Assembly: GCA_043228905.1 (NCBI GenBank)
Contig: JBHGNT010000001.1
Coordinates: 26,412,001-26,476,000 of the forward strand
Length of the DNA: 64,000 nt
Direction of reading: 5' to 3'
From: Azolla caroliniana
Lineage: Eukaryota > Plantae > Polypodiophyta
The first letter of the stretch is position 1. Each line of letters begins with the position of its first letter. The notes under the pieces were generated by a model. That model was not told where the DNA came from, did not search any database, and saw nothing but the letters and a program-made list of their open reading frames with translations. This document shows positions 30,017-53,426 of the stretch, one piece after another. A program made the position numbers and the translations under genes.

Positions 30017-30309
30017 TAGAAACTGATACACACATAACATACATACATACATACATTCAATATATGATTCTCTTTTACATTCATGCATGCATACATACTT
30101 ACATACATACATACAGAAGCCTTCTTTATGATTTGATAGTAGATAGACACGAGCCAGAAACCGACGTGTCTATTATGACACAAATCATAAAGAGGCTTGG
30201 TGAGGGAATCGCGGCCACAGACGGTGCAGGTCGCTCAGAGAAGGCGCGTGTGATCTGCACCGTCCGATTTGGATGAGGAAGAAGGCGCCAAAAAAAAAGT
30301 TGCGCAGGC

Positions 30310-30690
30310 GGTCGCCCAACCCTGTCAGAGGTCTCCCAACCGTTTTTTTTTTAAATTTTTGGTTGATTTGGTCACCCAACCAACTCAAAAAAAAAAGTAG
30401 GTCACCCAACTGTTTATTTTTAAATAGGTTGGGTGACCTGTTTAACCAGGTTGGGAGACTCCTTTAGAGTTTATATTGAGTTGGTCACCCAACCAACTCA
30501 ATAAAAGAAGCAGGTCACCCAACTGTTGATTTTTAAAACAGTTGGGCGACCTGTTTATCCAGGTTGGGAGACTCCTTTAGAGTTTATATTGAGTTGGTCA
30601 CCCAACCAACTCAATAAAAGAAGTAGGTCACCCAACTGTTGATTTTTAAAACAGTTGGGAGGCCTGTTTATCCAGGTTGGGAGACTCCTT
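30310..30690. repeat. Left subterminal repeat array (GGTCACCCAAC / GTTGGG motifs, ~111-bp higher-order unit)
   Basis: Many GGTC[AG]CCCAAC and GTTGGG[ACT]GAC copies in both orientations, mirrored at 37370-37605. Confidence 0.85.
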
Positions 30691-30933
30691 TAGGGATGTC
30701 TATAAAAGCCCTAAACCTGTCATAATCTGTCATTTTTTCAAACGAGATTGACAGGTTGGGTTTGCCGGGAAAGAGGTGGGAGCTCCTCCATCACAAATCG
30801 TCTGTGGCTGCACAAATCGATCTCCTCCATCACAAATCGATCTCCTCCATCACTATTCCCAGGTATGCTCCTTGTTATTATATCTTCCACAATGTTATAT
30901 TCATCGCTTCTTAATAATAATGAAAACAAGCAA

Positions 30934-31347
30934 GATTGTATGGACCATATTGATGCATAGACATGTTTAAGCTTTAGGGTTTAGAGTCACTATAGACAAG
31001 AAGATTGTATGGACCATATTGATGCATAGACATGTTTAAGCTTTAGGGTTTAGAGTCACTATAGACAAGAAGATTGTATGGACCATATTGATGCATAGAC
31101 ATGTTTAAGCTTTAGGGTTTAGAGTCACTATAGACAAGAAGATTGTATGGACCATATTGATGCATAGACATGTTTAAGCTTTAGGGTTTAGAGTCACTAT
31201 AGACAAGAAGATTGTATGGACCATATTGATGCATAGACATGTTTAAGCTTTAGGGTTTAGAGTCACTATAGACAAGAAGATTGTATGGACCATATTGATG
31301 CATAGACATGTTTAAGCTTTAGGGTTTAGAGTCACTATAGACAAGAA
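30934..31347 (+). repeat. Six identical copies of a 69-bp minisatellite containing TTTAGGGTTTAG
   Basis: GATTGTATGG starts at 30934, 31003, 31072, 31141, 31210 and 31279. The array follows a putative 5'UTR donor CCAG|GTATGC at ~30862. Confidence 0.95.
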
Positions 31348-31655
31348 GATAAGCGAACCATAAGTGAAGTATAATAGGATCTAATAGGCAAGGCTTTGTT
31401 GATTTCCAGCCACTCTAATCCCAGCCAGTATCTTGAAGGCATAATCTAGAAGAGGATGTAACCACTCTTATCCACACTATAGGTGAGGCCTATCAAACTT
31501 ATTATGATCTTGCGTTCACTAGATTTGCTTGCTTAAACTTGATTTAATCATCTATATTTTGATTGTTGGTTTTAATGATTTGCTTGCTTAAACTTGATAT
31601 TTTGTGTGTTTGAGTACTAAAATCAAAAAATGTTTGATTACTTGAATGGTGGTAG

Positions 31656-32988
31656 ATGACTTCCAACTCCAAGTACAAAGATTGGTGGGATTTCGATAAC
31701 AGTGATATATATCCAACTCAAGAGAGGTATGTCACGAACCAATCTCCCCCAAGAATGGTTTAGGGTTTGATGCATGTATGTTGACTTGTGATTTGTTAAA
31801 GGGTCTTCGTTAGAAGACATTGGCGAAGTCGAGGAGCCGACATGTGTACGAGTGGGGACAAAATGGACCAAGATGCTCCTCCAAATGGTATGTGGATTTG
31901 GTGTCGTTGCAATATCTCAATCTTTATGCCAATCTTTATGTCAATCTTAAATATGTAACACAGGTGCAGAAGGAACAGTTGCTCCTCGTCCCGACTTGTT
32001 GTATAAGGTTGGAAGAGATGCAAATGGGAACAAGGCTCGTGCATGTATCTACACTGAGTTTTGCCGCCTCTCGCCAAGGTGGTATCGGAAAAAAAGTGAC
32101 ATGGAGTCACATTTACGCAGAGAACATGCAATAGACGTAGTCCTACCACGAGGGATGCGTATAGAGGAGGAGGAGGGTATTCCGGGGGCATGCTTTAACA
32201 GTTATGAGCGTCAAAGATCACTCAAAAGATTCATGGACCCGGAAATCAAGTACTATAGAAATCGACAAAAATATATCTGAAAGTTGAAGGTTAGGGCTGT
32301 TTCGAAATACAACTCTATTCCTGCTGAACTCCGTCTTGACACACAGGCAGAGTTCGTGGCACGATTTATGGACAAAGAGATGACTATATACGACTCCAAT
32401 AAGGATGAGCGTTTGGAGATGTTGACGAAGAAGATAGCAGCTGGTTTGGATTCTTATGTAAGTATGAGTGAGGATTTCATTTCAGATTGTTGGAGGGTTT
32501 ATTGGCAAAATTCAGATAATAAGATGTGTCTTATTGTGGTGAAACAGTGTAAAAAGGCGGGGATATCCACCCAACCGCAGGGTGTGTCCACGGATGTGGA
32601 TGAGAGTCAAAACCCATCTGAGGGTGGTGTGTCCACTCCACCGAGACGGAGACGACCGAAAATGCCAATCCGACGGAAGGAGGTCGAGTCAAACACTGAT
32701 GTTGTTTCCCTAACATCAGATTCAGATGACGTTGCATCGGATGTGGCCATAGTTCAAATTCAACATGGCAAGGGCATCGGATGTGGCCATATCTTCGACT
32801 TTTGTAAGTGTAATTGCAATTCCTTGTTCATGTGGATTGTGTATAGATGTGTTCTTATACATATTTGGTTACAGGGCACAGAGATGTGGTTCACCAAACG
32901 CGAAGTGGATTCACTTCGGATTCATGTGGACGAGTGGGCACGATCGGTATTAGGATTTGCACCTGCGACCGGTGGCTCCATATTGTAA
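31656..32988 (+). pseudogene. MULE accessory gene encoding a C2H2 zinc-finger protein, intron-containing, with one premature stop
   Basis: Exons 31656-31726, 31802-31887 and 31964-~32804 join in frame through GT-AG introns (MTSNSKYKDWWDF...PPNGAEGTVAPRPDLLYKV...). Motif CIYTEFC...YRKKSDMESHLRREH. TGA at 32278-32280 lies in a CpG context and the frame continues after it. A further donor GTAAGT at ~32805 and acceptor at ~32874 are present. Confidence 0.6.
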
Positions 32989-33225
32989 ATTTTGGGAATG
33001 TTGTTTTCAGCACAGATTTGGCTATAGAGCTGATGTTGTAACTATATTTTGGAATCCCCAAAAATTTTGTATAGTGAGAATCGACTCATTGTATATCGCG
33101 ATTACTTATTAATGGAAATGTTGTTTACAACAATTATTTATCTCAATCTGAATGTATTTATCTCAATCTGAATATTGTGGATGATCTGAATGTATGGTTT
33201 TAAACCAATCGCAAGTTGTGGTATT

Positions 33226-33490
33226 GTTATGGTCACCCAACCAGGTTAAAATTAATTATCTTTTGTTATGGTCACCCAACCAGGTTAAAATTAATTATCT
33301 TTTGTTATGGTCACCCAACCAGGTTGCCCAAACCTTTTAAAATTAATTATCTTTTGTTTTGGTCACCCAACCAGGTTGCCCAAACCTTTTAAAATTAATT
33401 ATCTTTTGTTTTGGTCACCCAACCAGGTTGCCCAAACCTTTTTAAATTAATTATCTTTTGTTTTGGTCACCCAACCAGGTCGCCCAACCT
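33226..33490 (+). repeat. Internal tandem array (38-59-bp units) carrying the subterminal GGTCACCCAACCAGGTT motif
   Basis: Five GGTCACCCAACCAGGT copies separated by AAAATTAATTATCTTTTG. Confidence 0.9.
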
Positions 33491-33659
33491 GTTATGTAAA
33501 CGGCCAGAAAAACGGTCATCTTAACATGTAAATTAATCACATTCTCTGTCACTTTAAACCATTCTCTGTCATTTTAATCATAGCTCATTGCATCTCCAAT
33601 ATCTGTCTTATAATCACATTCTGCGTCTTAATCACATTCTTATTTTGCACAATCTCTAA

Positions 33660-34105
33660 AAGCTAATCAGGATTAGTTATATTCTTAATCAGTTATAATC
33701 AGATTAGTTAGATTCTTAATCAGATTAGGGGGATTCTTAATCAGATTAGGGGGATTCTTAATCAGATTAGGGGGATTCTTAATCAGATTAGTTAGATTCT
33801 TAATCATCTTAGTTAGATTCTTAATCAGTTATAATCAGATTTTGTAGATTCTTAATAAGATTAGTTAGATTCTTAATCAGATTAGGGGGATTCTTAATCA
33901 GATTAGGGGGATTCTTAATCAGATTAGTTAGATTCTTAATCATCTTAGTTAGATTCTTAATAAGTTATAATCAGATTTTGTAGATTCTTAATAAGATTAG
34001 TTAGAGTCTTAATCATATTAGGGGGATTCTTAATCAGTTATAATCAGATTAGTTAGATTCTTATAACCAGATTAGTTAGATTCTTAATCAAATTAGTTAG
34101 ATTCA
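33660..34105 (+). repeat. ~21-bp unit minisatellite (ATTCTTAATCAGATTAG[TTAG/GGGG]) immediately upstream of the transposase ATG
   Basis: About 20 variant units read directly, ending a few bases before the ATG at 34112. Confidence 0.9.
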
Positions 34106-34111
34106 TTCGAG

Positions 34112-37036
34112 ATGAATCCCAACGAAATAGATTTAATCACATCCTTGTATGATTCTGAGGATGGTTATGCATCACCATACTCCGCAACCATCGACGATGA
34201 CTTGGATTCGTCTACATCCGAAGACTATGAGTCGGCTTCATCCGAAGAAGAGGCGGAGGAGGTTGATCCCTTCATGTATTGTTCGGCGAGGTATATTGCG
34301 TTCACTAGAGGTATGTATGATTTAATGCTTAAAGATTTATTAGGTCAAGTTAAGGTAACATTTGAAATATTAAGCACACTCGCAAGGGGGGCACCTCTTA
34401 ATTTACATGCATGGAGGCGCATGAAGAGTCGTCTCACGCTTATGAATGAGAATGCAATACACCTTAAGGCATCGCCTCATCTTCAGATTACGCACGTAGA
34501 GAAATGGAGGGAGATAGTATTGGCGTCACATTGTGGCGCATCGCACCGTTCTTTGACAGGTACTCTGACAGAATTAAAGAGAAATTGGTCCAATGACCTT
34601 CGTGACTATGGGATCCCTAGTGCGTATGTGAAAGCAGTGATTGACCAATGCGGTTGTCAAGTTGTGTCGAGGTTAACTCCATCTGACATGGAGGGGACAA
34701 GTGTCGTGAAATATAAAAAGTCTAGACCCATAGAAGTGATCAAGGTAGAGGCACATAGGGTTGATGATACGTTGATAGATGTTCAATTGAGGTATCACAC
34801 ACGCTTTTGTACAGGGGTCACAAGGGGTGCACATGTGACTAGGTATAATTGTCACCGATCCGGTGTGGCCAACAAGCAATATCCATGCACTCGACGTAGA
34901 AAGCATTCATCTCGATGTGGGTGTACTTTTCATGTGAACGCTCGAATGAATGGCGGGGTTGACCATGGGACAGTGACCCTTTCAATATATGGACCTCATA
35001 CGGGTCATGTACCGGGAAGTAGACCAGATGCATACTATTTGCCAGTGGCCCCAAATGTTATAAGTTGTTGTAGAGATGACCTTTTTGATGTTGGTTGCGC
35101 ACGACACGTGGCACGGATGAGCATGCGTAAGGAAGCATATCATAAGTCCAAGGCTAGTCCATTAGACCTTGTGAGTTATAGGTTCTTTATGATACCAAAG
35201 GAGGTCAATAACATGGCCAACAAGTTAAAAATCGGGAGTGCCATGTCAGGGGTTGATTGGTCTTTGATGATGCAAGATGCCTATGCCCTCCGAGATCTTG
35301 GGAAGGTGGCTCATGTCCAACCCTACTTGCCTGGTGAATATGGATCTCCCGCAAGGCAACCGTTCATCTTGGTTCTCCAAGATGAATGGATGTTAGAGAT
35401 GTGTGAGCGACTGTCGATAAACAACTCTTGGGCAATCGACTCCACGTTTAAAACAAACCAATTTGGCTTGCCATTATATGCAGTTGTGGCTCCAAATGCC
35501 ATGGGAGTTGGTATCCCATTATGGTACATGATATGTAGTTCTGATAAGGGGTCTAACCATGAGCAAGTAGCTTTAGAAACTTGCTTGAGAGTCATATTTG
35601 CACGGATGCCCAATGTGAGGCCAAATGCCATAGTCATCGATAAAAGTTGGACATCGTATAATGCCATAAGTAATGTGGTTGCAACAGACCGATTATCTTG
35701 GATAGTTACAAATGGGCAAAGGTCGCAAACACATTGTCGACTTTTGTTGTGTCACTTCCATGCAAAAAAAGCATGGTTGGACAACTTGTTGCCAAAGGTA
35801 AGTGCAAGTGAGAGAAACCACCTTTATAATCGGATGTGCCAACTCATGCAATGCATTACGGAATCCACATTCAATGCCCAATGTGAGGACTTAAAGGTAG
35901 AATATGCAAACAAGCCAGGTGTTTGGCAATATATAGAAGGAGGATGGTGTGGCTTGACATGTGTGTGGAGGAAACTGTGGCCCAAATTTGGTAGAATGTT
36001 CAACTACGGACATGTTGACACTACCAATCTTGTGGAGAGACATTGGCAGTTTATCAAATATACTGCCTTAAGAGGGAGGATAAACCGATCAATTACCGAT
36101 CTTGTGCATGTTTTAATCGGGGACAGTCAAACTGGCACTTGCATCGGGGGTACTGTTATTGAATGGTACAAGCAACGACAAGAAATATGTGAGAGTGGTA
36201 GATTTGCACCACGTGCAAATTGTAGGGATCAAACAACTAGACTTAAAGAGGCCGAAAGGCTACTAGAGAGGTATGAAACTAATAATGCGACAATGCATAT
36301 TGTGGACGAGCCTCGATATTGGTTTAAAATATTGAGCTTGACAAAACCGGATGTATGGTATAATGTATCGCTCCAATGTTCATATTGTGATTGCCACGAC
36401 CCTGCGAGTAAATGTAAGCATATACTTGGCATCAGGATGATTATTGAGAGGCACATGCCACATCTATGTGGGTCATTGCCTTTTATAGATCATGCAACCT
36501 ATATGCGCAATGACCATTTCACAGAGACGGAAATGGAGACAGAGGTAGAACCAGTCGAGGAGACAAACCCTATAACATCACGAGTGGAGGAATGTTTGTC
36601 GAAATTACAAACGCTTGAGGGGGCTATTCAATGTTTTAAGCAAGGGTTACAATCCCTCGACTGTGCAGCAATTTTGGCATGTATGGAGTCCATTCAAGAA
36701 ACAAGTGAGACATTGGTGTATCACACAGGTGCACCGAAACCAACTAACGAAGAAGACCGTGGATCCATAGGGCGTAAGCAAGCAATTGGTGCAAAAAGGG
36801 GAGCATCAATCAACATTTCACAAGATCTTATTGGCAGCTCCCCAAACACTTCCAAGGCACACACAGGAAAAATGCAAAGAGGCGCAAGTCGAGCTAGGAG
36901 GCGGTTGCCAATATGTGCGACAGATAAAATGCGATGCTTGCATTGCGATGCCTTGACCTTTAGATCAAGGGACTCAAATGTTGATTGTTGCAAGAATTGT
37001 GGTCGCATCTTGCCATCATCTCCGGATGAGCCATAA
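34112..37036 (+). CDS. MULE (Mutator-superfamily) DDE transposase with SWIM zinc finger, 974 aa, uninterrupted ORF
   Basis: WRKY/GCM1-like finger (CHRSG...CGCTFHV...HTGH), D in AIDSTFKTN, D in IVIDKS, the CxxH motif LCHFH, E in TTNLVERHW, SWIM finger CDC...CKH and a C-terminal CLHC...CKNC finger. The ORF lies inside TIRs with a 9-bp TSD. Confidence 0.92.
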   Translation: MNPNEIDLITSLYDSEDGYASPYSATIDDDLDSSTSEDYESASSEEEAEEVDPFMYCSARYIAFTRGMYDLMLKDLLGQVKVTFEILSTLARGAPLNLHAWRRMKSRLTLMNENAIHLKASPHLQITHVEKWREIVLASHCGASHRSLTGTLTELKRNWSNDLRDYGIPSAYVKAVIDQCGCQVVSRLTPSDMEGTSVVKYKKSRPIEVIKVEAHRVDDTLIDVQLRYHTRFCTGVTRGAHVTRYNCHRSGVANKQYPCTRRRKHSSRCGCTFHVNARMNGGVDHGTVTLSIYGPHTGHVPGSRPDAYYLPVAPNVISCCRDDLFDVGCARHVARMSMRKEAYHKSKASPLDLVSYRFFMIPKEVNNMANKLKIGSAMSGVDWSLMMQDAYALRDLGKVAHVQPYLPGEYGSPARQPFILVLQDEWMLEMCERLSINNSWAIDSTFKTNQFGLPLYAVVAPNAMGVGIPLWYMICSSDKGSNHEQVALETCLRVIFARMPNVRPNAIVIDKSWTSYNAISNVVATDRLSWIVTNGQRSQTHCRLLLCHFHAKKAWLDNLLPKVSASERNHLYNRMCQLMQCITESTFNAQCEDLKVEYANKPGVWQYIEGGWCGLTCVWRKLWPKFGRMFNYGHVDTTNLVERHWQFIKYTALRGRINRSITDLVHVLIGDSQTGTCIGGTVIEWYKQRQEICESGRFAPRANCRDQTTRLKEAERLLERYETNNATMHIVDEPRYWFKILSLTKPDVWYNVSLQCSYCDCHDPASKCKHILGIRMIIERHMPHLCGSLPFIDHATYMRNDHFTETEMETEVEPVEETNPITSRVEECLSKLQTLEGAIQCFKQGLQSLDCAAILACMESIQETSETLVYHTGAPKPTNEEDRGSIGRKQAIGAKRGASINISQDLIGSSPNTSKAHTGKMQRGASRARRRLPICATDKMRCLHCDALTFRSRDSNVDCCKNCGRILPSSPDEP

Positions 37037-37369
37037 ATGTTTGGTAACTTTCAACTTTTATGTTTTGCCAGGATTATTTGTTTTAACAGAAGTATGGTAA
37101 AGATCGTCGGTTTTAAGTAATTTAAGGTTGAATTTTGTGACTATTTGATATGTTATTGTAAGTTTACATTCTTCGTTTTATGTTTTAAATGTTTTTTAAC
37201 TTTCAACTTTTATGTTTTAATATGATTATTTGTTTTAACATAAGTATGGTAAAGATCGTCGGTTTTAAGTATTTTAAGGTTGAATTTTGTGACTATTTGA
37301 TATGTTATTGTAAGTTTTAAGGGTAATTAACAAGCTTATTTGAAGATTTTGGTTGGAATGATACATTTG

Positions 37370-37605
37370 GTTGGGCGACCTGCAACGGTTGGGAGACCAA
37401 TCGGTTGGGCAACCTGTAACTGTCAGGGTTGGGTGACCTAAAACGGTTGGGCAACTTGCAACAGTCATAGTTGGGTGACCAATTTCGGTTGGGCGACCAA
37501 CGACTCAGAGTTGGGTGACCTCTGACAGGGTTGGGTGACCATCGACTCAGAGTTGGGTGACCTCTGACAGGGTTGGGTGACCATCGACTCAGAGTTGGGC
37601 GACCT
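37370..37605. repeat. Right subterminal repeat array (GTTGGGTGACC; 42-bp unit repeated)
   Basis: GACTCAGAGTTGGGTGACCTCTGACAGGGTTGGGTGACCATC repeats in tandem and is the inverse of the left-end motifs. Confidence 0.88.
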
Positions 37606-37831
37606 CTGACAACTTTTTTTTTCGCGCGCTCTTCCTTATCGAAATCTGACGGTGCAGATCGCACGCACCTTCCTCTAGGCGACCTGCACCGTCTGTGGCC
37701 GCGATTCCCTCACCAGCCCTCTTTATGATTTGGTGCAGGATAGCAACGAGCGCCAGAAACTGATACACACATAACATACATTCATACATACATATTATAC
37801 ATGCGTGCATGCATACATACATTCAATATAC

Positions 37832-37862
<31 letters not shown>

Positions 37863-38045
37863 GCTTCTCTTTCTTACATTAGGATCCAAAGCTACTACTT
37901 CTGCTGCTACTTTTAAGCAGAAACTGCGCCACAATCCCAAATGCAAATGGAAGCAAATCGACCATGCCCACCAATCCCTGCATGATGATGATGTATTAGC
38001 CTTGCCTGTCTGTCTTACACCTTGCCATGATCCTCAGAGGGGGAT

Positions 38046-40793
38046 ATGCTGCTACCCCATCCTCCATTAGAGCTCCCTTCATCCTCCAAGTCCGCCTCCA
38101 TAGCTGCTTTAGCTTCTCCCTCGCGTAGAAACCACTACAACCTAGCAGAGAAACAGCGATCAGATCGAGCTGATCAGGAGCTGATTTGGCGGGACCTCCT
38201 CGCAAATCCTTCCCTCTGGTGGGATAATAGATATGATAAGCTTGGCCGTGGCCACCCTGACTTTAGACACAAAATCTCACGGCAGCCTCTCTGGCTTAAC
38301 AGTCATTGTAAACCTACCTGGGTCGATAGGGAAAAGCTTGATTCTTTCAACCATGGCCTTTATGCAGATAGTTGTGGCGTGTTCGAAGATTTGGTTAAGA
38401 AATTCCATGGTTTTTGCAGGGTTGGAAAGCTTGATATGGCCATCCATATGCTATTTAACATGCCTTTTCATCCCACTGAGAACATGTATTACGCTTTGCT
38501 CAAGGTGTGTAATGATAGAAAAGATCTTGCTGAAGCGAGATTGGTTCAATCTCGTCTTTCTTGGGATAACCTTGAGATTTTTGGGTTTCTGGGTGAGTAT
38601 TTGGTCATCACCTTGGTTAAATGTGGTGGAATTGAAGATGCTCTCTATGTCTTCAATAGAATGCCACATAGAACGGTTTTCTGTTGGACTGCTATCATTT
38701 CAGGATATGTAGAATGTGGAAATTTTAATGAGGCTTTAAGTCAATATCCTTTGATGCAAGGAGATGGCATTGATCCAAATGATTTCACATTTATATGTCT
38801 TCTCAAAGCATGTGGCTCTCTTCGTGATTTGGAAGGGGGAAACAAGATGCATATAGAAGCGAAAAAATATAACTATGGATGTGATTTGTTTGTTGGGACA
38901 AGCTTGATTGACATGTATGCAAAATGTGGGAGTATAATCCTCGCCAAGAAAGCATTTGATGGGTTATTAGAGCGAAATGTAGTCTCTTGGACTGCATTGC
39001 TAGCGGCTTATGCTGAACATGGTCAACCTGAAAGAGCTTTGGGATTCTATGATAAAATGCAAGATGAAAGTGTGAGTCCTGATGATCGCGCCTTTGTGAT
39101 TGCCCTTCAAGCTTGTTATGTGCTCGCCGAAGATGAAGGGTCTCTTGGTCAAGATGCTCTTAGAAGAGCTCAGGCATTACATGCTAATGCATGGATCAAG
39201 AGCTTAGACTCTGATGTTTTTGTAGGCAATGCTCTTGTGAGTTTGTATGGGAAATGTGGAAAGATTACTGAAGCTGAAAATGTGTTTGCCAGGTTGCCTA
39301 TTCGCGATATAGTCTCATGGAATGCATTGTTATTTGCTTATGTTGAGGACGGTTGGACACACAAGGCTTTGCGTTTGTTTCGACAATTGAAGGAGGAAGG
39401 AGTGGCTCCAGATGATCGGACATTTGTATCATCCCTTCAAGCATGTGTCATGTTGGTTGAAAATGATGAATGCAGTGGTTTTTCAGCCCAATCAACTAAA
39501 TTGATTGCTGTTGAGGTTGGCCGAGCATTGCATTTCGAGTCAAGAATAACAGGATTTGATACAAACCTCTATGTGAGTCATACATTAGTGAATTTGTATA
39601 GTAGTTGTGGCACGATTGCTGAATCCGAAAATGCCTTTATTCGTCTTAGAGAATACTCAGTTGTATCATGGACAGTCATGTGCCTAGCGTACCTCAAGCA
39701 AGACGAAGGTGTAAAAACGTTACAGCTATATAAGGAAATGCAAGATGAAGGGGTAGCTCCGAATGATAGAGCCTTTACAGTTGCTCTTCAAGCCTGTTGC
39801 TCTCTTGCTGAAAAGGAAGCAACTGAGGGTCAACCAGACAAAGCTATACTCCATATGATTGGAAAGGCACTCCACGCCGATGCACAAAGAATTGGCTTTG
39901 ATTTGGATGCATTTGTTAGTAGCGCACTGGTGACAATGTATGAGAAGTGTGGGGGTCTAGAAGAGGCGAACAACACGTTTTCTGAGCTATCAAAAGATCA
40001 CGTAGCACCGTGGAATGCAATGCTATCGGCATGCATTGAAAGAGATGAAGGACATAAGGTTTTAGAATTGTATGGACAAATGCAAGAGAGGGGAATTGAG
40101 GTGACCGATACAACTCTTCTATATGCTCTGCAAGCATGTAGTAAAGCTGGGAGTCTAGAGATCTGTCGGGAGATTCATTACACTCTTGTTGCTGCCGGGC
40201 TAGAGTCAAAGATGAGCCTTGTGAATACTTTTATTCATGCTTATGGATTTTGTGCAAGTATAGCCGATGCACATGCTGTTTTCAATCTGATGCCAACACA
40301 TGATGATGTGGCATCATGGAACACTCTCATTGGTGGATATGCTCAACAAGGTAACTGGGCAACAAGCCTCCTCCTATATGAGAAAATGAAGGGGACATTT
40401 GTTAAACCTGATGGGATCACATTTACTTCCATTCTCACTGCGTGTTGTCATGGTGGGCTTGTAGAGAAAGGCATTGATTATTTAGAATCCATGAGTAGAG
40501 ATTATAGTCTATGTCCAGAGATTGGGCACTATAGTACTGTCTTAGATCTCCTTGGGAGAGCAGGCGATTTTGTGAGGGTGAGAGACTTGCTATCAAGTAT
40601 GCCAATGTATCCTAACATAGCTATGTGGTTAGGCTTACTTGGTGCATGTCAAATGCATGGTAATGTTGAGTTAGCATGGCATGCGTACAATGAGGCTGTT
40701 CATTTGCAACCCAAGCAAGCGACTGCTTATGTTTTAGTGTTGAATATTTATGCTGATGCAGACCCTGAGGTTTATGAAGTGGCAATGGATTAA
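38046..40793 (+). CDS. PLS-class pentatricopeptide repeat protein (E subgroup, no DYW) with N-terminal OSB-type PDF motif
   Basis: Repeated P-L-S triplets (VVSWTALLAAYAEHG / PDDRAFVIALQAC / DVFVGNALVSLYGKCG), terminal L2-S2-E1 (ACCHGGLVEKG, HYSTVLDLLGRAG, WLGLLGACQMHGN) and a truncated E2. Residues ~46-97 read WRDLLANPSLWWDNRYDKLGRGHPDFRHKISRQPLWLNSHCKPTWV. Confidence 0.93.
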   Translation: MLLPHPPLELPSSSKSASIAALASPSRRNHYNLAEKQRSDRADQELIWRDLLANPSLWWDNRYDKLGRGHPDFRHKISRQPLWLNSHCKPTWVDREKLDSFNHGLYADSCGVFEDLVKKFHGFCRVGKLDMAIHMLFNMPFHPTENMYYALLKVCNDRKDLAEARLVQSRLSWDNLEIFGFLGEYLVITLVKCGGIEDALYVFNRMPHRTVFCWTAIISGYVECGNFNEALSQYPLMQGDGIDPNDFTFICLLKACGSLRDLEGGNKMHIEAKKYNYGCDLFVGTSLIDMYAKCGSIILAKKAFDGLLERNVVSWTALLAAYAEHGQPERALGFYDKMQDESVSPDDRAFVIALQACYVLAEDEGSLGQDALRRAQALHANAWIKSLDSDVFVGNALVSLYGKCGKITEAENVFARLPIRDIVSWNALLFAYVEDGWTHKALRLFRQLKEEGVAPDDRTFVSSLQACVMLVENDECSGFSAQSTKLIAVEVGRALHFESRITGFDTNLYVSHTLVNLYSSCGTIAESENAFIRLREYSVVSWTVMCLAYLKQDEGVKTLQLYKEMQDEGVAPNDRAFTVALQACCSLAEKEATEGQPDKAILHMIGKALHADAQRIGFDLDAFVSSALVTMYEKCGGLEEANNTFSELSKDHVAPWNAMLSACIERDEGHKVLELYGQMQERGIEVTDTTLLYALQACSKAGSLEICREIHYTLVAAGLESKMSLVNTFIHAYGFCASIADAHAVFNLMPTHDDVASWNTLIGGYAQQGNWATSLLLYEKMKGTFVKPDGITFTSILTACCHGGLVEKGIDYLESMSRDYSLCPEIGHYSTVLDLLGRAGDFVRVRDLLSSMPMYPNIAMWLGLLGACQMHGNVELAWHAYNEAVHLQPKQATAYVLVLNIYADADPEVYEVAMD

Positions 40794-41499
40794 TAAGCAC
40801 CGAAATTGGGTGAGATAGTGATCATTGCATATTTTGCAATATGTTTATTTTGTTTTCTCAAGACATTTTTGGAAGATCTTCTTACCTTTTGCCTGGACAC
40901 GGGCAAAAATCGCTATCCCAATAATTGAAACATGTTATTTATAGGAGCTCAATGTTGATCAAGTTCAAGAAAAAAATTCATGGAGAAGTCTTGGTGGATT
41001 TGGGCAAATTATAGTAAAGAAAAAGTATGCATGCGAATTAGAGTTGTCCTATTTGGAACACATCACATGAAGGTGCCATATAGCATGTGTTTTTTAGATG
41101 GTGCTTTGATGATCACTGTGCAAGATTGCGAGGAAGCACCATGTAATGTACTAAAGACCTTTTATATATATTGTACCAACATTGAGTGGGATGGTGTTCA
41201 TTACTTATTTGGCAACATGTTTCTTTTATTTTCTCAAGCCTTAGAAGCTAGAGGTGTATAGTGTCTCAAGAATCTATGAGAAGGGTGTGAAAGTGTCGGC
41301 AGGGCCACGAAACGAGAGTGTGACTTGGACAGTAAAATGAGATTCTATTAATGAGGGAGCTGCAATAAAGTGAGACTTGGGCAACAAAAAAAAAGCAAAT
41401 AAGAGGGGAGAAGCGTGCTTTATGTAGCCACCCTCTCTACATTCCCTCTTCAACGATCAACATTAGGAGTAGGATCAAGAATATACTCTTAGAAATGCA

Positions 41500-47060: not shown

Positions 47061-47765
47061 TGTAACCATCATACATAACGCATGGAGAATAGAGTATTAT
47101 ATTAGGAGCGTTAAAGTAACGCGTTGTCGTGAAGAAAACCATCCAGAGCGGAATCCGTGCACCGGAGCGTAGAAACCGACTCTTCATGCACGTGCGCCTT
47201 AAGTTGTACATAGGAGATCCTAGGTAGATTCGGTAGGTAGGGAGTAAAGGGGAAACGACTCCTTCCTTGCCTATAAAAAAGGAGGGAGACGAGGAGGGTA
47301 GGGGGATCGCGGAGAGTCGAGGACGAAGTGCTGTCGGTTTGCGTGCGAAGGCTTCTTTCTCTCTCTCTGGTTCGCAAACTCCATAGCTTCCTTTTGTGCA
47401 GGTTTCGGGAGGCTCGCGCTGCTCTGAGGAATGCCCGAGTGCTTCCGGCAGCACCTCCAACCTGTTCCTGTCTTTCTGTGCGTTTACGAACAGGTATCGA
47501 CATCTGATCGCCGGCCTGTTCGGTTGTAACCGACTTCGTGTTTTGTTGTCTTCGTGTTCTTGTTGTTTGTCTTTGTTAATACATACATACATTCGTGTCT
47601 TTCTATGTCGCTGTCCCACTTGCGTCTTTGCGTCGAAGGGCCGTGTCCCTGTGGATCTACGCTCGCACGTAGAGGGTTTCTTCCCCTTCCTCTCTCGCTC
47701 TTTGGTATAGGACCCCCGAGGTTCCGCCTCATTCCACGCATCCGCGAGGAATACCTCGACATCTT

Positions 47766-47783
47766 TGGTGAACCCGACGTGAA
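47766..47783 (+). promoter_or_regulatory. Primer-binding site complementary to the tRNA-Trp 3' end
   Basis: Reverse complement of ...TTCACGTCGGGTTCACCA, the 3' end of plant cytosolic tRNA-Trp as I recall it. It begins 4 nt after the LTR. Confidence 0.8.
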
Positions 47784-47805
47784 GGAGGCGGCAGAAGAGC
47801 AGAAG

Positions 47806-49932
47806 ATGAAAGGGTCGGATCTTGCAGAGGCCATGGCTTCGGCCGTGGATCGGATACTGAGCGCACGCGAGGGCTCCAGCGCCCTCGACAGAGCCATTGA
47901 GGCGGTCGTCGGTACGATCGGCCGGTTCAGCGGAAAGGATGCCACGAAGTATTTGGCGTCCTACGGGGTAGAAATGCTGATGCGGGACATTCCAGAAGAG
48001 AGGCGTCTTGCCGGGTTCCCTCGAGTGGCGATGCCGAGCATCCATGTGGAGGTGCTCGAGGTACGGGCGGAGAGCCGTACCTGGGAGGAGTTCGAAGGCC
48101 GACTCCTAGAGAAATATGGGCTGAACGACGCGCTCCGGCTTTCGAAACGGGACTTCATGGAATGGGTGGAGTCCCCCGACAAAGGAAGAAACGCGTTGGC
48201 ACTCCTCTGGGAGTTCGAAGAACGCTTTGCGCGCCTTTCGGCGCTTGACCGAACTATCCTGGATACGAGCCGGGTCCTACTGTTCGTCAAGTCGGTGGAC
48301 GAGCGGGACCGGGATCAAGTCGGCTCCTTGCTGGAAACCGAAGACGGGTTGACAACCGATTGGGCTGCGGTTAAGAGAGTCTATGGCCGTTTCGACAAAC
48401 GGCGAGAATGGGCTGACAACGGGGCGGCCGATGCGGGCTCTGTTACAGCAAGGAGGCTTGAACCGGCGCCGCAAGTGCGAAGGGAAGAGACCCGGGAATG
48501 GCTTGAAACCGGTTCGGCTTCGACCGGCATGGTCAATGGCTCGTCCGGAGGAGCAGCGCTGGAGGAGTTGATGCGGGCGATAAAGGATCTCCAGATCGCC
48601 CAGACTCGAAGGGAAGGCGGCGAACCGGCTCGTGACCGACGGCCGGCAGTAGGGAACAGGTGCATGTGGTGCGACGAGGTCGGCCACATCCGGAAGGACT
48701 GCGGCGATTTCGCAGAAGCGTTGAGGAACTGGGTGGTGTACCTGTGGGAAGGCCGGGTGCACGCCGGCGACACCATAAGGGCCCTAAACCAAAACGACGG
48801 ACGAGGAGGTATGAAGAGACTGATGGAAGAGGTAGCGGCCCGACACGTGGAGGCCATCCACTACTCGACGTCGGCCGGCATTCGGGTCGGGGGCAGCGAG
48901 GCCCGAAAGGAGGGCAAAGACGGCTTCTGGTCGGCAATGCTGGAAGGTCTTGCCGGCGCATGGTTGAAGAAGGATGAAACGGACCGCGTTGAGAGACGGG
49001 TCCGGGAAATAACCGGGTGGAGCGATCCGGTCGAGGAGAAGACGGGCTTCGTAGAAGCCGCCTGCCAGAACTACGAGGCTCTGGTAGAAGACAAGCGAGT
49101 GGGGAAAGCCGGAGCGGCCGGGCCCTCACAACGATACGAGACCCGATACGGGCAACGACGGAACGATGCCGGCGGGTCCAGCTCGCAAGATAACCCTAGG
49201 AAGGGCGGATACCGATTGGGGACGGAGATAGAAAGGACTACGGACCTACGAAAGGTCCTAGAAGAACGGATCCTCGACAGCAAAGTGGAGCTGACATTGC
49301 GAGAGGTGTTAGGGATCGCCAAGAAGGAGTTCCACGACTCCATTGTAGACTTGGTGAAACGGAAGAGGCTGTCGACGGAGACGGATCCGGAAAGACCGGT
49401 AGAGGTGCGGACGACGCACATCGACGACTCAGCACTAGCAGATGAGTGGGCGGAGAGCCACTATTCGAGGCCACACTGGGCCCGGGCGACCACGGAGACC
49501 CCGGCAAAGATCGGAGAGGTTCAGGAACTGGTGGTGGCACTGGTGGACCACGGTTCGGAAATAAACCTGATGTCCATGGACTTCTATAAGAAGGGGAAGT
49601 GGCCGATCAACACCAAGCACGGGTGGAAGATACGGGCGGCGACGCGCGCCACTGAGGAACTGCATGGGGCCTGCCCGAATGTGCGAGTCAAGATCGGCGA
49701 CGTCGGGATTGACCAGCACTTCTTCGTACAGGAGACGTCCTCGCACTCGGTCATATTAGGGGAACCATACATCACGGCGGCTCGAATGGAGACCAAGGTG
49801 CTAGACAACGGTTCGGCCTACACAAGGGTCAAAAGCCAGGACGAGTGCCATTCGGTCCAATTTCTGACCGTGAGACCGAACCACGAGAGGAACCGCGAAT
49901 CCCTCGGTGGCGAGAACCGGGAGGATTTTTAG
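47806..49932 (+). CDS. Gag-protease ORF of element D
   Basis: CCHC knuckle CMWCDEVGHIRKDC, aspartic protease ALVDHGSEINLM and ILGEPY. The upstream part of the 47554 ORF lies in the LTR, so the first ATG after the PBS (47806) was chosen. Confidence 0.85.
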   Translation: MKGSDLAEAMASAVDRILSAREGSSALDRAIEAVVGTIGRFSGKDATKYLASYGVEMLMRDIPEERRLAGFPRVAMPSIHVEVLEVRAESRTWEEFEGRLLEKYGLNDALRLSKRDFMEWVESPDKGRNALALLWEFEERFARLSALDRTILDTSRVLLFVKSVDERDRDQVGSLLETEDGLTTDWAAVKRVYGRFDKRREWADNGAADAGSVTARRLEPAPQVRREETREWLETGSASTGMVNGSSGGAALEELMRAIKDLQIAQTRREGGEPARDRRPAVGNRCMWCDEVGHIRKDCGDFAEALRNWVVYLWEGRVHAGDTIRALNQNDGRGGMKRLMEEVAARHVEAIHYSTSAGIRVGGSEARKEGKDGFWSAMLEGLAGAWLKKDETDRVERRVREITGWSDPVEEKTGFVEAACQNYEALVEDKRVGKAGAAGPSQRYETRYGQRRNDAGGSSSQDNPRKGGYRLGTEIERTTDLRKVLEERILDSKVELTLREVLGIAKKEFHDSIVDLVKRKRLSTETDPERPVEVRTTHIDDSALADEWAESHYSRPHWARATTETPAKIGEVQELVVALVDHGSEINLMSMDFYKKGKWPINTKHGWKIRAATRATEELHGACPNVRVKIGDVGIDQHFFVQETSSHSVILGEPYITAARMETKVLDNGSAYTRVKSQDECHSVQFLTVRPNHERNRESLGGENREDF

Positions 49933-52900
49933 AGAGGGCTGCCAAGGCGTGGGGCCGAGACAGTCCGGACACTCGGGAAAGACCCCACAGCTGTACGATA
50001 GAACAGAAACCGAAGAAACCTTGTACGATAGGTAGAAAATTCTGCTTCTCCGGCAACGGAGGGTGCATGATAGTCGGCATCGTTGGGCGAGAAAAGACAA
50101 GGGCGGAAGTGCGACTTCGAGCGTGCGGAGTTCTCGGCCCGGACGAGGAAATCAGCGGAGCCGTTGAGGCGGTCTCCTTCGACGACACCTTGGGGATGCT
50201 GAGGAAGGTTGCCAGAGAAGACCTTAACGAAGACCGGACGATACTGGTATGTTCCGAAGAGATGTACGAAGTCATCGCGAACTTCAGTCGGGGGCTCGGG
50301 TCGGATCGGACGGCCCGAGTTAGCACAAAGTACAAGGCTGTGGACCGGAAGGTAAGGCCAGTCGCGGCACCCTTACTGGAGGGCAGCGAGTCCCGGATCG
50401 GAGGGGTTGCGTCGGACCCCAGTTTACGAGATCCGGCCTGCATAGGACACCCCTTCACCGACGGGACGCTCCGGGAGCTCAAAATCGGTGGGGGCGGGTT
50501 CCTACTGCCGGCGGAGGAAGACCGTTTTTGGAGGATGCTCAGAAGGCACGGGAAAGCCTTCGCATTCTCACCGGAAGAGATCGGGTGCGTGGACCCGACG
50601 ATCGTGGAGCCGATGGTGATATTCACGGTACCGCATGTACCGTGGAATCTCAAGCCGATTCCAGTACCGAGAGCTCACATCCCGAAGTTGATGGAGCTAT
50701 TGAGGCAGAAAGTCGATATGGGTATTCTCGAACCGTCGAGCGCGCCATACTTGAACCGATGGTTTACCATACCAAAGAAAAACGGAACATTGCGCTTCAT
50801 TCAGGACCTGCAGCCGGTCAACAGAGTGACCATCTGGAACGCATGAATCGGACCGACCATAGACGAGTTCGCGGAGGCCTTCGCCGGAAGGTCGATTTAC
50901 TCGGTCGGTGATCTGTACTCGGGGTACGACCAGTTCCAGCTAGCCGTGGAGAGCAGAGACATTACGACGATGCGAACTCCCCTCGGCCTAGTGCGAATGT
51001 GTACCCTGCCACAAGGAGGGACCAACTCGGTGGCCCACATGGTGAATGCAATGAACAAAGTACTGAGGGATTGCATCCCGGACATCACCATGCCGTTTCT
51101 AGAAGACATCCCTATCAAGGGGTGCCCGGTGGAAGAGAAGGATGAGACACTCGGGCCGGACGGATGCCGGCGATTCGTAGCAACACACATCGACGACTGC
51201 GAGAAGGTGCTACAAAGGCTAGAGGATGCGAGGCTCACCTTCTCCGGGGAGAAATCGGCCTTCGGGCAATCAGAGATCCTGGTGGTCGGGCACCTATGTG
51301 GACCATATGGCCGGAAGCCGTCTCCGGCAAAGGTAGAAGCCATCTCCGCGATGAAGACCGACTGTAGCTCGGTTACGGAAGTTCGGAGGTTCCTGGGGGC
51401 ATGCGCATTCTACCACATATGGATCCCGCATTACGCCCACGTTGCGGAGCCGCTATACGGGTTGCTGAAGAAAGGGCGAAAATTCGAGTGGCGAGACGAG
51501 CACACGGAGTCGGTCCGGAAGCTGAAGGAAGCTCTTGCGGCAGCACCGGCGCTCCGGAAGGCTGTCTACGAGAAGGGTACCCCAGTATACATAACGGTGG
51601 ATACGAGCCCGACCGGGATCGGATGGGTCGTCAACCAAGAAGACGAGGACGGCACCCGGTTCCCGATCCGATTCGGTGCGAAGGTCCTCAGTGAACGACA
51701 GCGAGGGTACGCCCAGGTTAAACGCGAACTCTGGGGTATCGTTTCGGCAGTAAAGGCCGACAAAGATTACCTGATCGGGATGGAAGTGGTTATCGAGACG
51801 GATTGCCTGCCGATTCTCGGCATGGTTTCCGGATGCGCGACACCGGACCTGGCGATGCTCAGGTGGATAGCGTACATCAAGTCCCTGGACCCGGAAATAC
51901 GACACATTTCCGGAAAGGACAACACCATGGCCGACATGCTTTCGAGGGCGAGGTTTGATGACGAGGGCGACATAGTTTCGGAGGACGAAGAAGTCGGCGT
52001 GGACTTCTTCGAGGCAGCGTACGTGACGACCGACGGGGCGAGCACTCCGGCACTTAACGGCTTCGACGAGAGCAAGTACGACGGCGAGTGGCTACAGATC
52101 GGTGGATTTTTGAGGACAATGACGCCGGATGCGTCATGGACGAAGGACGAGGCCAACCGGATCCGGAAGAAAGCATATCGATTCTTTCTCCAGGACGGAT
52201 ACTTATGGAAGCACCCGAAGAAGAGGAACGGCGTCCCGCTCCGGGTGGTGGCGATGAAGGAAGAACAGGAAGAGCTGCTGACGGCCTACCACGACAGCCC
52301 TTGGGCTGGACACCGTGGAACGTGGGCCACGTTCGAGAAGATAAAGGGGAAGTACTGGTGGCCGGGACTGTACCGGGACGTGCATCGGTTCGTGACAACT
52401 TGCGAGAGCTGTCAGATGCACTCCATAGTCCGACATCGGGACAAGCTTCACCCTACGTACCCTCCGACCATCCACTTCAAATGGATGGTAGATCTGGTGA
52501 CGATGTCGATGGGAGTCGGACAGATGCGGTATCTGGTCCTGGCTCGGGAAGATCTGACGAACCAGGTGGAAGGTCGAGCCCTTCAGAACAAAACGACCGC
52601 GGCCGTATGTCGGTTCCTGATCGAGGACGTGATATGCCGGTACGGGTGCGTCGGGAAGATCGTGGCCGATCGCGGGGAGCTGGACGCCGAAGAGGCCAAG
52701 GAGCTGTTCGACCGGCTAGGAGTCAAGCTCTCGCTTACCACTGCGTACAATCCGGAGGCGAATGGAAAGGTGGAGCGCGGACACGGACCGATCGTCAAGG
52801 CGTTAGTTCGGGCATGCGGAGGTCAAGTCGGGAACTGGCCGCGGCTGTTGCCTTACGCGTTGTGGGCGGACCGAACTACGCACAGTTCGGTAACCGGATT

Positions 52901-53426
52901 CATGCCGGCAGAGCTGATGTTTGGGCAGAAGCCGATCATGCCGATGGAACGCACGATCTCCTCTTGGGCAACCGTGGACTGGAGAGACGAGATGAGCTGG
53001 GAGGAACTGTTGGCGGCGTGCATACGACAGCTCGAGCGAAGAACAGAGGACGTGGAGCAGGCCGCGGGAAAGCTTCGAGTGGCAAGGACGAGGAACAAAG
53101 TCCGGTTCGACCGAACGCACCGGCTCCGACCGAAGAGGATCGAGGAAGGCGACTGGGTGCTAGTCTACGACAGCAGCCTCGACAACCAGCACCGAGCGAC
53201 ACGGAAGTTCGCAAGAAGGTGGTTCGGGCCTTATGTGGTACAAAGCGCCAACGACAACGGGACGTACCATCTGGCGGAACTCGACGGCACAAGAATAGCG
53301 ATACCGGTAGCTGGGAAGCGGATCAAAGCGTTCAAGAAGCGTCACGACAACGAGCCGGATCCGGTTAACCTGGACTGGGACGACGAACGATCCGAAACCG
53401 AGGAAGAACCGACGGGCGGGGAATGA
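49923..53426 (+). pseudogene. Pol (RT-RNaseH-integrase) of element D in the -1 frame, with a premature TGA at 50844-50846
   Basis: RT motifs LRFIQDLQ, DLYSGYDQ, LPQGGTNS and FLEDIP. RNase H VDTSPTG. Integrase H2C2 (H..PWAGH...CESC), D-D-E (MVDLV, VADRG, VERGH) and GPY motif. No chromodomain. Confidence 0.88.

Follow-up and report, generated by a model that had tools for sequence, protein, structure and literature searches.

An intron-less Azolla gene joining an OSB-type PDF motif to a PLS-class PPR array and belonging to a large gene family shared by seed-free plants

The 64,000-nucleotide window of Azolla caroliniana (the whole stretch of DNA that was analysed, taken from contig JBHGNT010000001.1) contains an intact, single-exon open reading frame of 915 amino acids, without internal stop or intron, which by its sequence is a PPR gene of PDF-PLS-E1-(half E2) architecture (Table 1). 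Profile searches assign it to a large group of PDF-PLS fusions in seed-free plants, and it is a conserved and functional-looking gene. We tentatively propose, with a probability of roughly 45%, that the encoded protein would be a PLS-E editing specificity factor acting in an organelle and tethered by its PDF motif to the ssDNA of the nucleoid.

Table 1. Position and basis of the features of the PDF-PLS gene in the window
Feature	Position	Strand	Basis
Single-exon PDF-PLS-E1-(half E2) PPR gene, 915 aa	38046..40793	+	ORF, Pfam, collinear Adiantum homologue
Leader, aa 1-46, Ser/Ala-rich, fast-evolving, likely organelle transit peptide	38046..38183	+	composition, substitutions, Adiantum identity
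OSB-type PDF motif, aa 47-95 (P71-D72-F73)	38184..38330	+	profile, selection, model, conservation
Linker and degenerate first helical repeat, aa 96-144	38331..38477	+	sequence; 41% identity to Adiantum homologue
20 PLS motifs: L-S, five P-L-S triplets, P2-L2-S2	38478..40616	+	Pfam, hand parse
E1 motif	40617..40718	+	Pfam, hand parse
First part of E2 and short tail, without E+ or DYW afterwards	40719..40790	+	hand parse, DYW profile

The earlier note on this DNA had placed the finding at 38181, whereas the ORF starts at 38046; aa 48-93 (nt 38187-38324) match the peptide that it quoted without a single change. The annotated start is supported by one related organism, in which the indels upstream of the ATG are frame-breaking and the sole downstream indel is a 3-base insertion. 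In two related organisms, contigs bridge the PDF and the PPR array (X15 record 21, 38183-41376; X3 record 27, 38025-39021). The fusion and the open frame are thus present in relatives, and these contigs say nothing on the transcription of the Azolla copy. Several short stretches of the last codons (40732-40759) are absent from the X15 contig, indicating that the tail beyond the E2 fragment is variable between relatives.

The assignment of aa 47-95 as a genuine OSB-type PDF motif is based on a profile that combines 90 motifs from 33 proteins with an OB-fold; its seeds were proteins annotated as OSB2-like and OSB3. The window motif reached 61.4 bits on this profile. Of 2000 shuffles, 1966 of which obtained a score, none exceeded 12.8 bits, and the OSB motifs themselves ranged from 28.7 to 86.5 (median 74.5). 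The OSB proteins of the profile had been retrieved with the window motif as query and the profile is not fully independent of it, but the OSB names carried by the retrieved clusters are independent of the query. This score, together with the 21 of 25 conserved OSB columns that the window motif keeps, upholds the view of the earlier note that an OSB PDF motif is present. A six-frame scan of the 64-kb window with the PDF profile gave the aa 47-95 motif as its one match. The net charge of the motif is +4 and it contains 7 aromatics, for OSB means of +1.4 and 7.0.

When 58 aa containing the motif were compared by exhaustive search with 1.84 billion representatives, 457 proteins were obtained at a whole-library E<=0.001. 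Pfam, run on 149 of the best 150 of these 457 matches, detected the SSB OB-fold in 33 and PPR families in 12, and the names OSB2-like and OSB3 were borne by two of the ten clusters looked up. A word-index search with the motif alone as query returned no long match and a single 224-aa fragment, 94% identical. No Pfam family matched the PDF motif alone. The SSB OB-fold PF00436 gave no match in the ORF at E<=1, merely 46 aa lying ahead of the PDF, and the identity of an OSB protein was rejected since the OB-fold is absent.

The PDF motif is predicted to be a small folded domain. Its AlphaFold2 model, obtained from a 76-row alignment, is compact (mean pLDDT 81.8) and consists of a helix, three short strands and a helix; the single-sequence model of the full-length protein was poor (pLDDT 49) and was set aside. 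No sequence relative of the motif was found among solved structures. Comparison of the PDF model with 48,161 chains gave no fold match (best Z 2.7) and Foldseek returned nothing at E<=0.001 in PDB or BFVD, from which fold novelty does not follow. In the ESM Atlas, the motif alone had no match and the motif together with the array retrieved PPR clusters only.

Along the rest of the ORF, Pfam recognized PPR families and an E motif (aa 871-905) at 26.4 bits, for a cut-off of 27.3. The 20 P/L/S motifs, a complete E1 and the 24 aa of E2 were parsed by hand from the consensus anchors of these motifs. No DYW was detected by Pfam in the ORF, and a DYW profile applied across the window revealed no remnant in the ORF or downstream, so that the identity of a DYW editing enzyme was rejected. 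The PLS array with E1, a partial E2 and no DYW that the earlier note had described is thus recovered by Pfam, hand parse and DYW profile. Canonical code pairs at positions 5 and last (TN, TD, ND, NT and SN) are present in 10 of the 13 P/S motifs. Three L motifs (39084-39215, 39414-39566 and 39765-39908) have insertions of 9-16 aa between their helices, all three shared with the Adiantum homologue.

This homologue, GOP47_0023086 of Adiantum capillus-veneris, is collinear with the Azolla protein and 52% identical to it over 892 columns, the identity being 63% in the PDF, 54% in the PPR array and 17% in the leader. Nine of the 13 P/S code pairs are the same in both proteins, for a chance expectation of 0.08-0.18 per motif, which points to a conserved RNA target. 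With 8 Ser and 6 Ala in 46 aa, the leader is likely an organelle transit peptide, and the far higher identity of the PDF makes it unlikely that the PDF is part of this peptide. The differences listed between the window and the contigs of the two related organisms, at least 35 in all, lead to a similar picture: synonymous and non-synonymous differences number 2 and 9 in the leader, 7 and 2 in the PDF, and 5 and 10 in the linker. The ratio in the PDF (7/2) departs from that of its flanks (7/19; Fisher p=0.015), and on these substitutions the PDF motif is under purifying selection.

The earlier note had presented the gene as a chimera. Both modules and their fusion are real, but the gene is not a one-off, as it belongs to a family of at least 107 fusions. 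This number was obtained by screening 276 proteins for a PDF accompanied by at least two P/S motifs, and it includes the query and a few near-duplicates; the fusions come from ferns, Diphasiastrum and Sphagnum. One PDF copy is present in 75 of them, two in 24 and three in 8. In 106 of the 107, all PDFs are N-terminal to the first detected P/S motif, and across the family the leader ahead of the PDF measures 3-190 aa. A DYW-like end is found in 34 of the 107 fusions, with HxE...CxxC kept in 30.

A PDF-only profile was also run against proteins of 476-2000 aa and gave 246 matches, PPR arrays being present in 93 of the best 120. Counted by hand, these 93 are made up of 81 Diphasiastrum complanatum clusters (a few of which are isoforms of one locus), 5 from Sphagnum, 2 from named ferns and 5 unnamed. 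Among the same best 120 of 246 matches, a PPR domain was found in none of the 20 named angiosperm proteins, and no named fusion came from Selaginella, Physcomitrium, liverworts, hornworts or gymnosperms. The named fern members belong to Adiantum, Ceratopteris (KP509_09G038200 and KP509_14G038700 among them) and Pteridium, and a transcript-style record of Pteridium aquilinum contains three PDFs and PPR in a single ORF of 1374 aa. Ten fern-type members were examined: all lack a DYW, and the majority end soon after the first part of E2. The named members of the family are annotated as hypothetical or plain PPR proteins, and the lack of a Pfam model for the PDF motif makes the family invisible to routine annotation.

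Two other arrangements of the motif were observed. In an ENA record (P0137) a PDF motif is found behind the C-terminal domain of a SUV3 helicase, suggesting that other organellar nucleic-acid enzymes may carry the motif as well. Four long proteins (P0006, P0004, P0009 and P0019) carry 8-11 PDF-like stretches and match neither the OB-fold nor PPR.

With a moss-type motif as query, 164 metagenome stretches were retrieved and 80 loci were kept, PPR motifs being found within 79 of these loci and an OB-fold exon in none. The PDF is split in 58 of them, contiguous in 20 and represented by one half only in 2. In 54 of the 58 split-PDF loci, a GT-AG intron is located right behind the invariant Lys codon, a place at which the Azolla gene has no intron. 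Four contiguous moss-type contigs (L001, L003, L007 and L008) correspond to genomic loci minus their introns, that of the PDF included, with 99-100% identity. This match of intron-less contigs to intron-bearing loci indicates that the fused message is made and spliced in relatives. In a tree of 95 motifs and 51 columns, from which most Diphasiastrum motifs were omitted and in which unnamed rows received their clade labels by similarity, the window motif groups with other fern-type PPR-fused motifs (support 94/96, not starred). A single clade of PPR-fused motifs is not rejected (p-AU 0.41), one origin and several origins being both compatible with this 51-column tree.

Two mobile elements were noticed elsewhere in the window. 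An apparently intact MULE (Mutator-like) DNA transposon occupies 30162-37751, with terminal inverted repeats of about 140 bp (86%), a 9-bp target duplication (30153-30161 and 37752-37760) and a transposase ORF of 974 aa (34112-37036). Tandem arrays are found within it, composed of near-perfect 69-bp units and of 21-bp units just before the transposase start (30863-31414, 33652-34104). The MULE ends 295 bp upstream of the PPR ATG, a proximity that may affect the expression of this PPR copy. The coding region of a Ty3/gypsy-like retrotransposon (47530-53426), with several ORFs comprising DUF4100 and RT, RNase H and integrase domains, sits in a GC-rich block of about 44-62 kb.

Our reading of the protein's function relies on what is reported for its two modules. 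According to the excerpts of three reviews (PMC6963530, PMC4166229, PMC6451138), the ssDNA binding of OSB proteins resides in the PDF motif, OSB1/2 favour ssDNA over dsDNA or RNA, and the binding form of OSB2 is a tetramer with several PDFs; these excerpts and those of PMC13393729 also state that OSB proteins limit repeat recombination. For the PLS module, section 17 of PMC10226603 describes arrays that bind upstream of edited cytidines, with a DYW supplied in trans for some of them, as well as PPR-DYW proteins that edit singly and without helpers, from which it follows that a PDF is not generally needed for editing.

Several steps could be envisaged: (i) the 46-aa leader would import the protein into the plastid or the mitochondrion and be cleaved ahead of the PDF; (ii) the array would bind one RNA sequence through the PPR code, approximately xxAnAGnUUnnAGnYnUUnA, the edited C being located four bases further along; (iii) having no DYW, the protein would borrow a deaminase in trans, like the E-class factors of angiosperms, and those members of the family whose DYW is intact would edit on their own; and (iv) the PDF would add a weak, sequence-independent ssDNA binding by which the factor is concentrated where its transcript is made. 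The PDF would then be an accessory that boosts efficiency and is dispensable for catalysis. By analogy with the OSB2 tetramer, a lone monomeric PDF may be a weak binder. The third step is uncertain in view of the stop inside E2 and of the absence of DYW from the ten fern-type fusions. Moreover, a PPR array reads RNA 5' to 3' from its N- to its C-terminus (excerpts of PMC13041630), which sets the PDF on the 5' side and at a distance from both polymerase and transcription bubble. A broader version, in which a seed-free-plant PPR class of hundreds of genes would be PDF-anchored on organellar ssDNA while the array (with DYW in many) reads nascent RNA or a displaced DNA strand, seems unlikely to us; if true, it would make a physical connection between RNA editing and both transcription and the maintenance of the organelle genome.

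The 5' position of the PDF could also serve another role, that of a sequence-independent ssRNA grip. It would bind the RNA just 5' of the PPR site, or unfold it there, and would serve as an internal helper in plants that lack MORFs. We consider this somewhat doubtful, though a serious rival to the candidate roles at R-loops or transcription bubbles or in recombination that the earlier note put forward. The geometry sets an N-terminal PDF beside the upstream RNA, and the location of all PDFs ahead of the first detected P/S motif in all fusions but one is in agreement with it. Among the best 120 of the 246 long matches, the named fusions originate from mosses, one lycophyte and ferns only, and MORFs were recruited in gymnosperms and angiosperms (excerpts of PMC13386178), but this complementary distribution may be a coincidence. 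The PPR-fused PDFs average 8.9 aromatics compared with 7.0 in OSB, a mean on which many Diphasiastrum paralogues weigh. The preference of OSB1/2 for ssDNA over RNA, as given in the OSB excerpts, and the retention of almost every OSB-conserved residue in the fused motif argue in the other direction.

It is improbable that the whole protein is a sequence-specific ssDNA binder, in which the PDF would provide affinity and the array would read the same strand, for instance one displaced in an R-loop or one in a recombination intermediate, so as to protect particular repeats or loci. Designer PPR arrays do recognize ssDNA through the same code, albeit less tightly (excerpts of PMC13041630), repeat recombination is reported to be suppressed by OSB proteins, and the Azolla copy has no deaminase. 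However, a catalytic-type DYW is kept in 30 relatives, and the presence of at least about 80 paralogue clusters in one lycophyte fits one factor per editing site better than genome surveillance.

Small Trp-rich domains are often protein-binding, and the PDF could be a protein-interaction module that either self-associates or docks on a partner, be it an OSB protein or a DYW donor. The reported tetrameric state of OSB proteins and the need of a partner by fern-type members without DYW would suit such a module. It is nevertheless quite improbable, as the PDF is also found on DYW-bearing members and its invariant Arg, Lys and aromatics suit nucleic-acid binding, the sole activity reported in the OSB excerpts. 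Finally, a PDF that is an inert hitch-hiker, or is lost along with the transit peptide, would agree with its start 46 aa from the beginning of the protein but is very improbable given its purifying selection, its higher conservation than the PPR array, its predicted fold, and its persistence, with triplication, in mosses, a lycophyte and ferns behind leaders of such different lengths.

The family is a direct handle on the question of whether organellar RNA editing is coupled to the nucleoid and transcription. By it one may also learn how plants that edit heavily and lack MORFs raise their editing efficiency, and the PDF is a naturally occurring module of 50 aa that could be appended to engineered PPR editors.

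The PDF-PLS family is apparently undescribed. No description of a PDF-PPR fusion was found in the full-text literature searched, the original OSB paper, the large PPR surveys and supplements lying outside this search, in accordance with the earlier note, whose author knew of no functional description. In the excerpts of a 2026 OSB survey, PPR is absent from the main text, and inclusion in the survey required a PDF together with an OB-fold, which excludes PDF-PPR proteins. The excerpts of a 2026 kingdom-wide survey of editing factors mention neither PDF nor OSB, those of a review on Physcomitrium PPR proteins give added domains without PDF among them, and in those of PMC7611903 ssDNA occurs in a reference title only.

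Compared with known systems, the Azolla protein shares features with three groups, as far as the excerpts of the cited papers describe them. With OSB proteins (PMC6963530, PMC4166229, PMC6451138, PMC13393729) it has in common the same 50-aa PDF, single or repeated, preceded by a putative transit peptide. In contrast to them, it is devoid of an OB-fold and its PDF is N-terminal, before the PLS array, whereas the OSB PDF is C-terminal. With the PLS-E editing factors that use a DYW in trans (PMC10226603), such as CRR4 with DYW1 or the partners of DYW2 and MEF8, it shares PLS triplets, P2-L2-S2, E1, a canonical code and the absence of DYW, but it differs from them by the extra N-terminal PDF, the shortened E2 and the long insertions in three L motifs. 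Finally, like the PPR proteins with RRM, SMR, LAGLIDADG, NYN, CBS or SAP domains and the RRM or MORF fusions (PMC9459714, PMC13386178), it would carry an accessory nucleic-acid-binding domain. The PDF is on neither of these lists as excerpted, and the fusion is distinguished by a partner that comes from DNA metabolism and by its occurrence as a large family of the PLS class.
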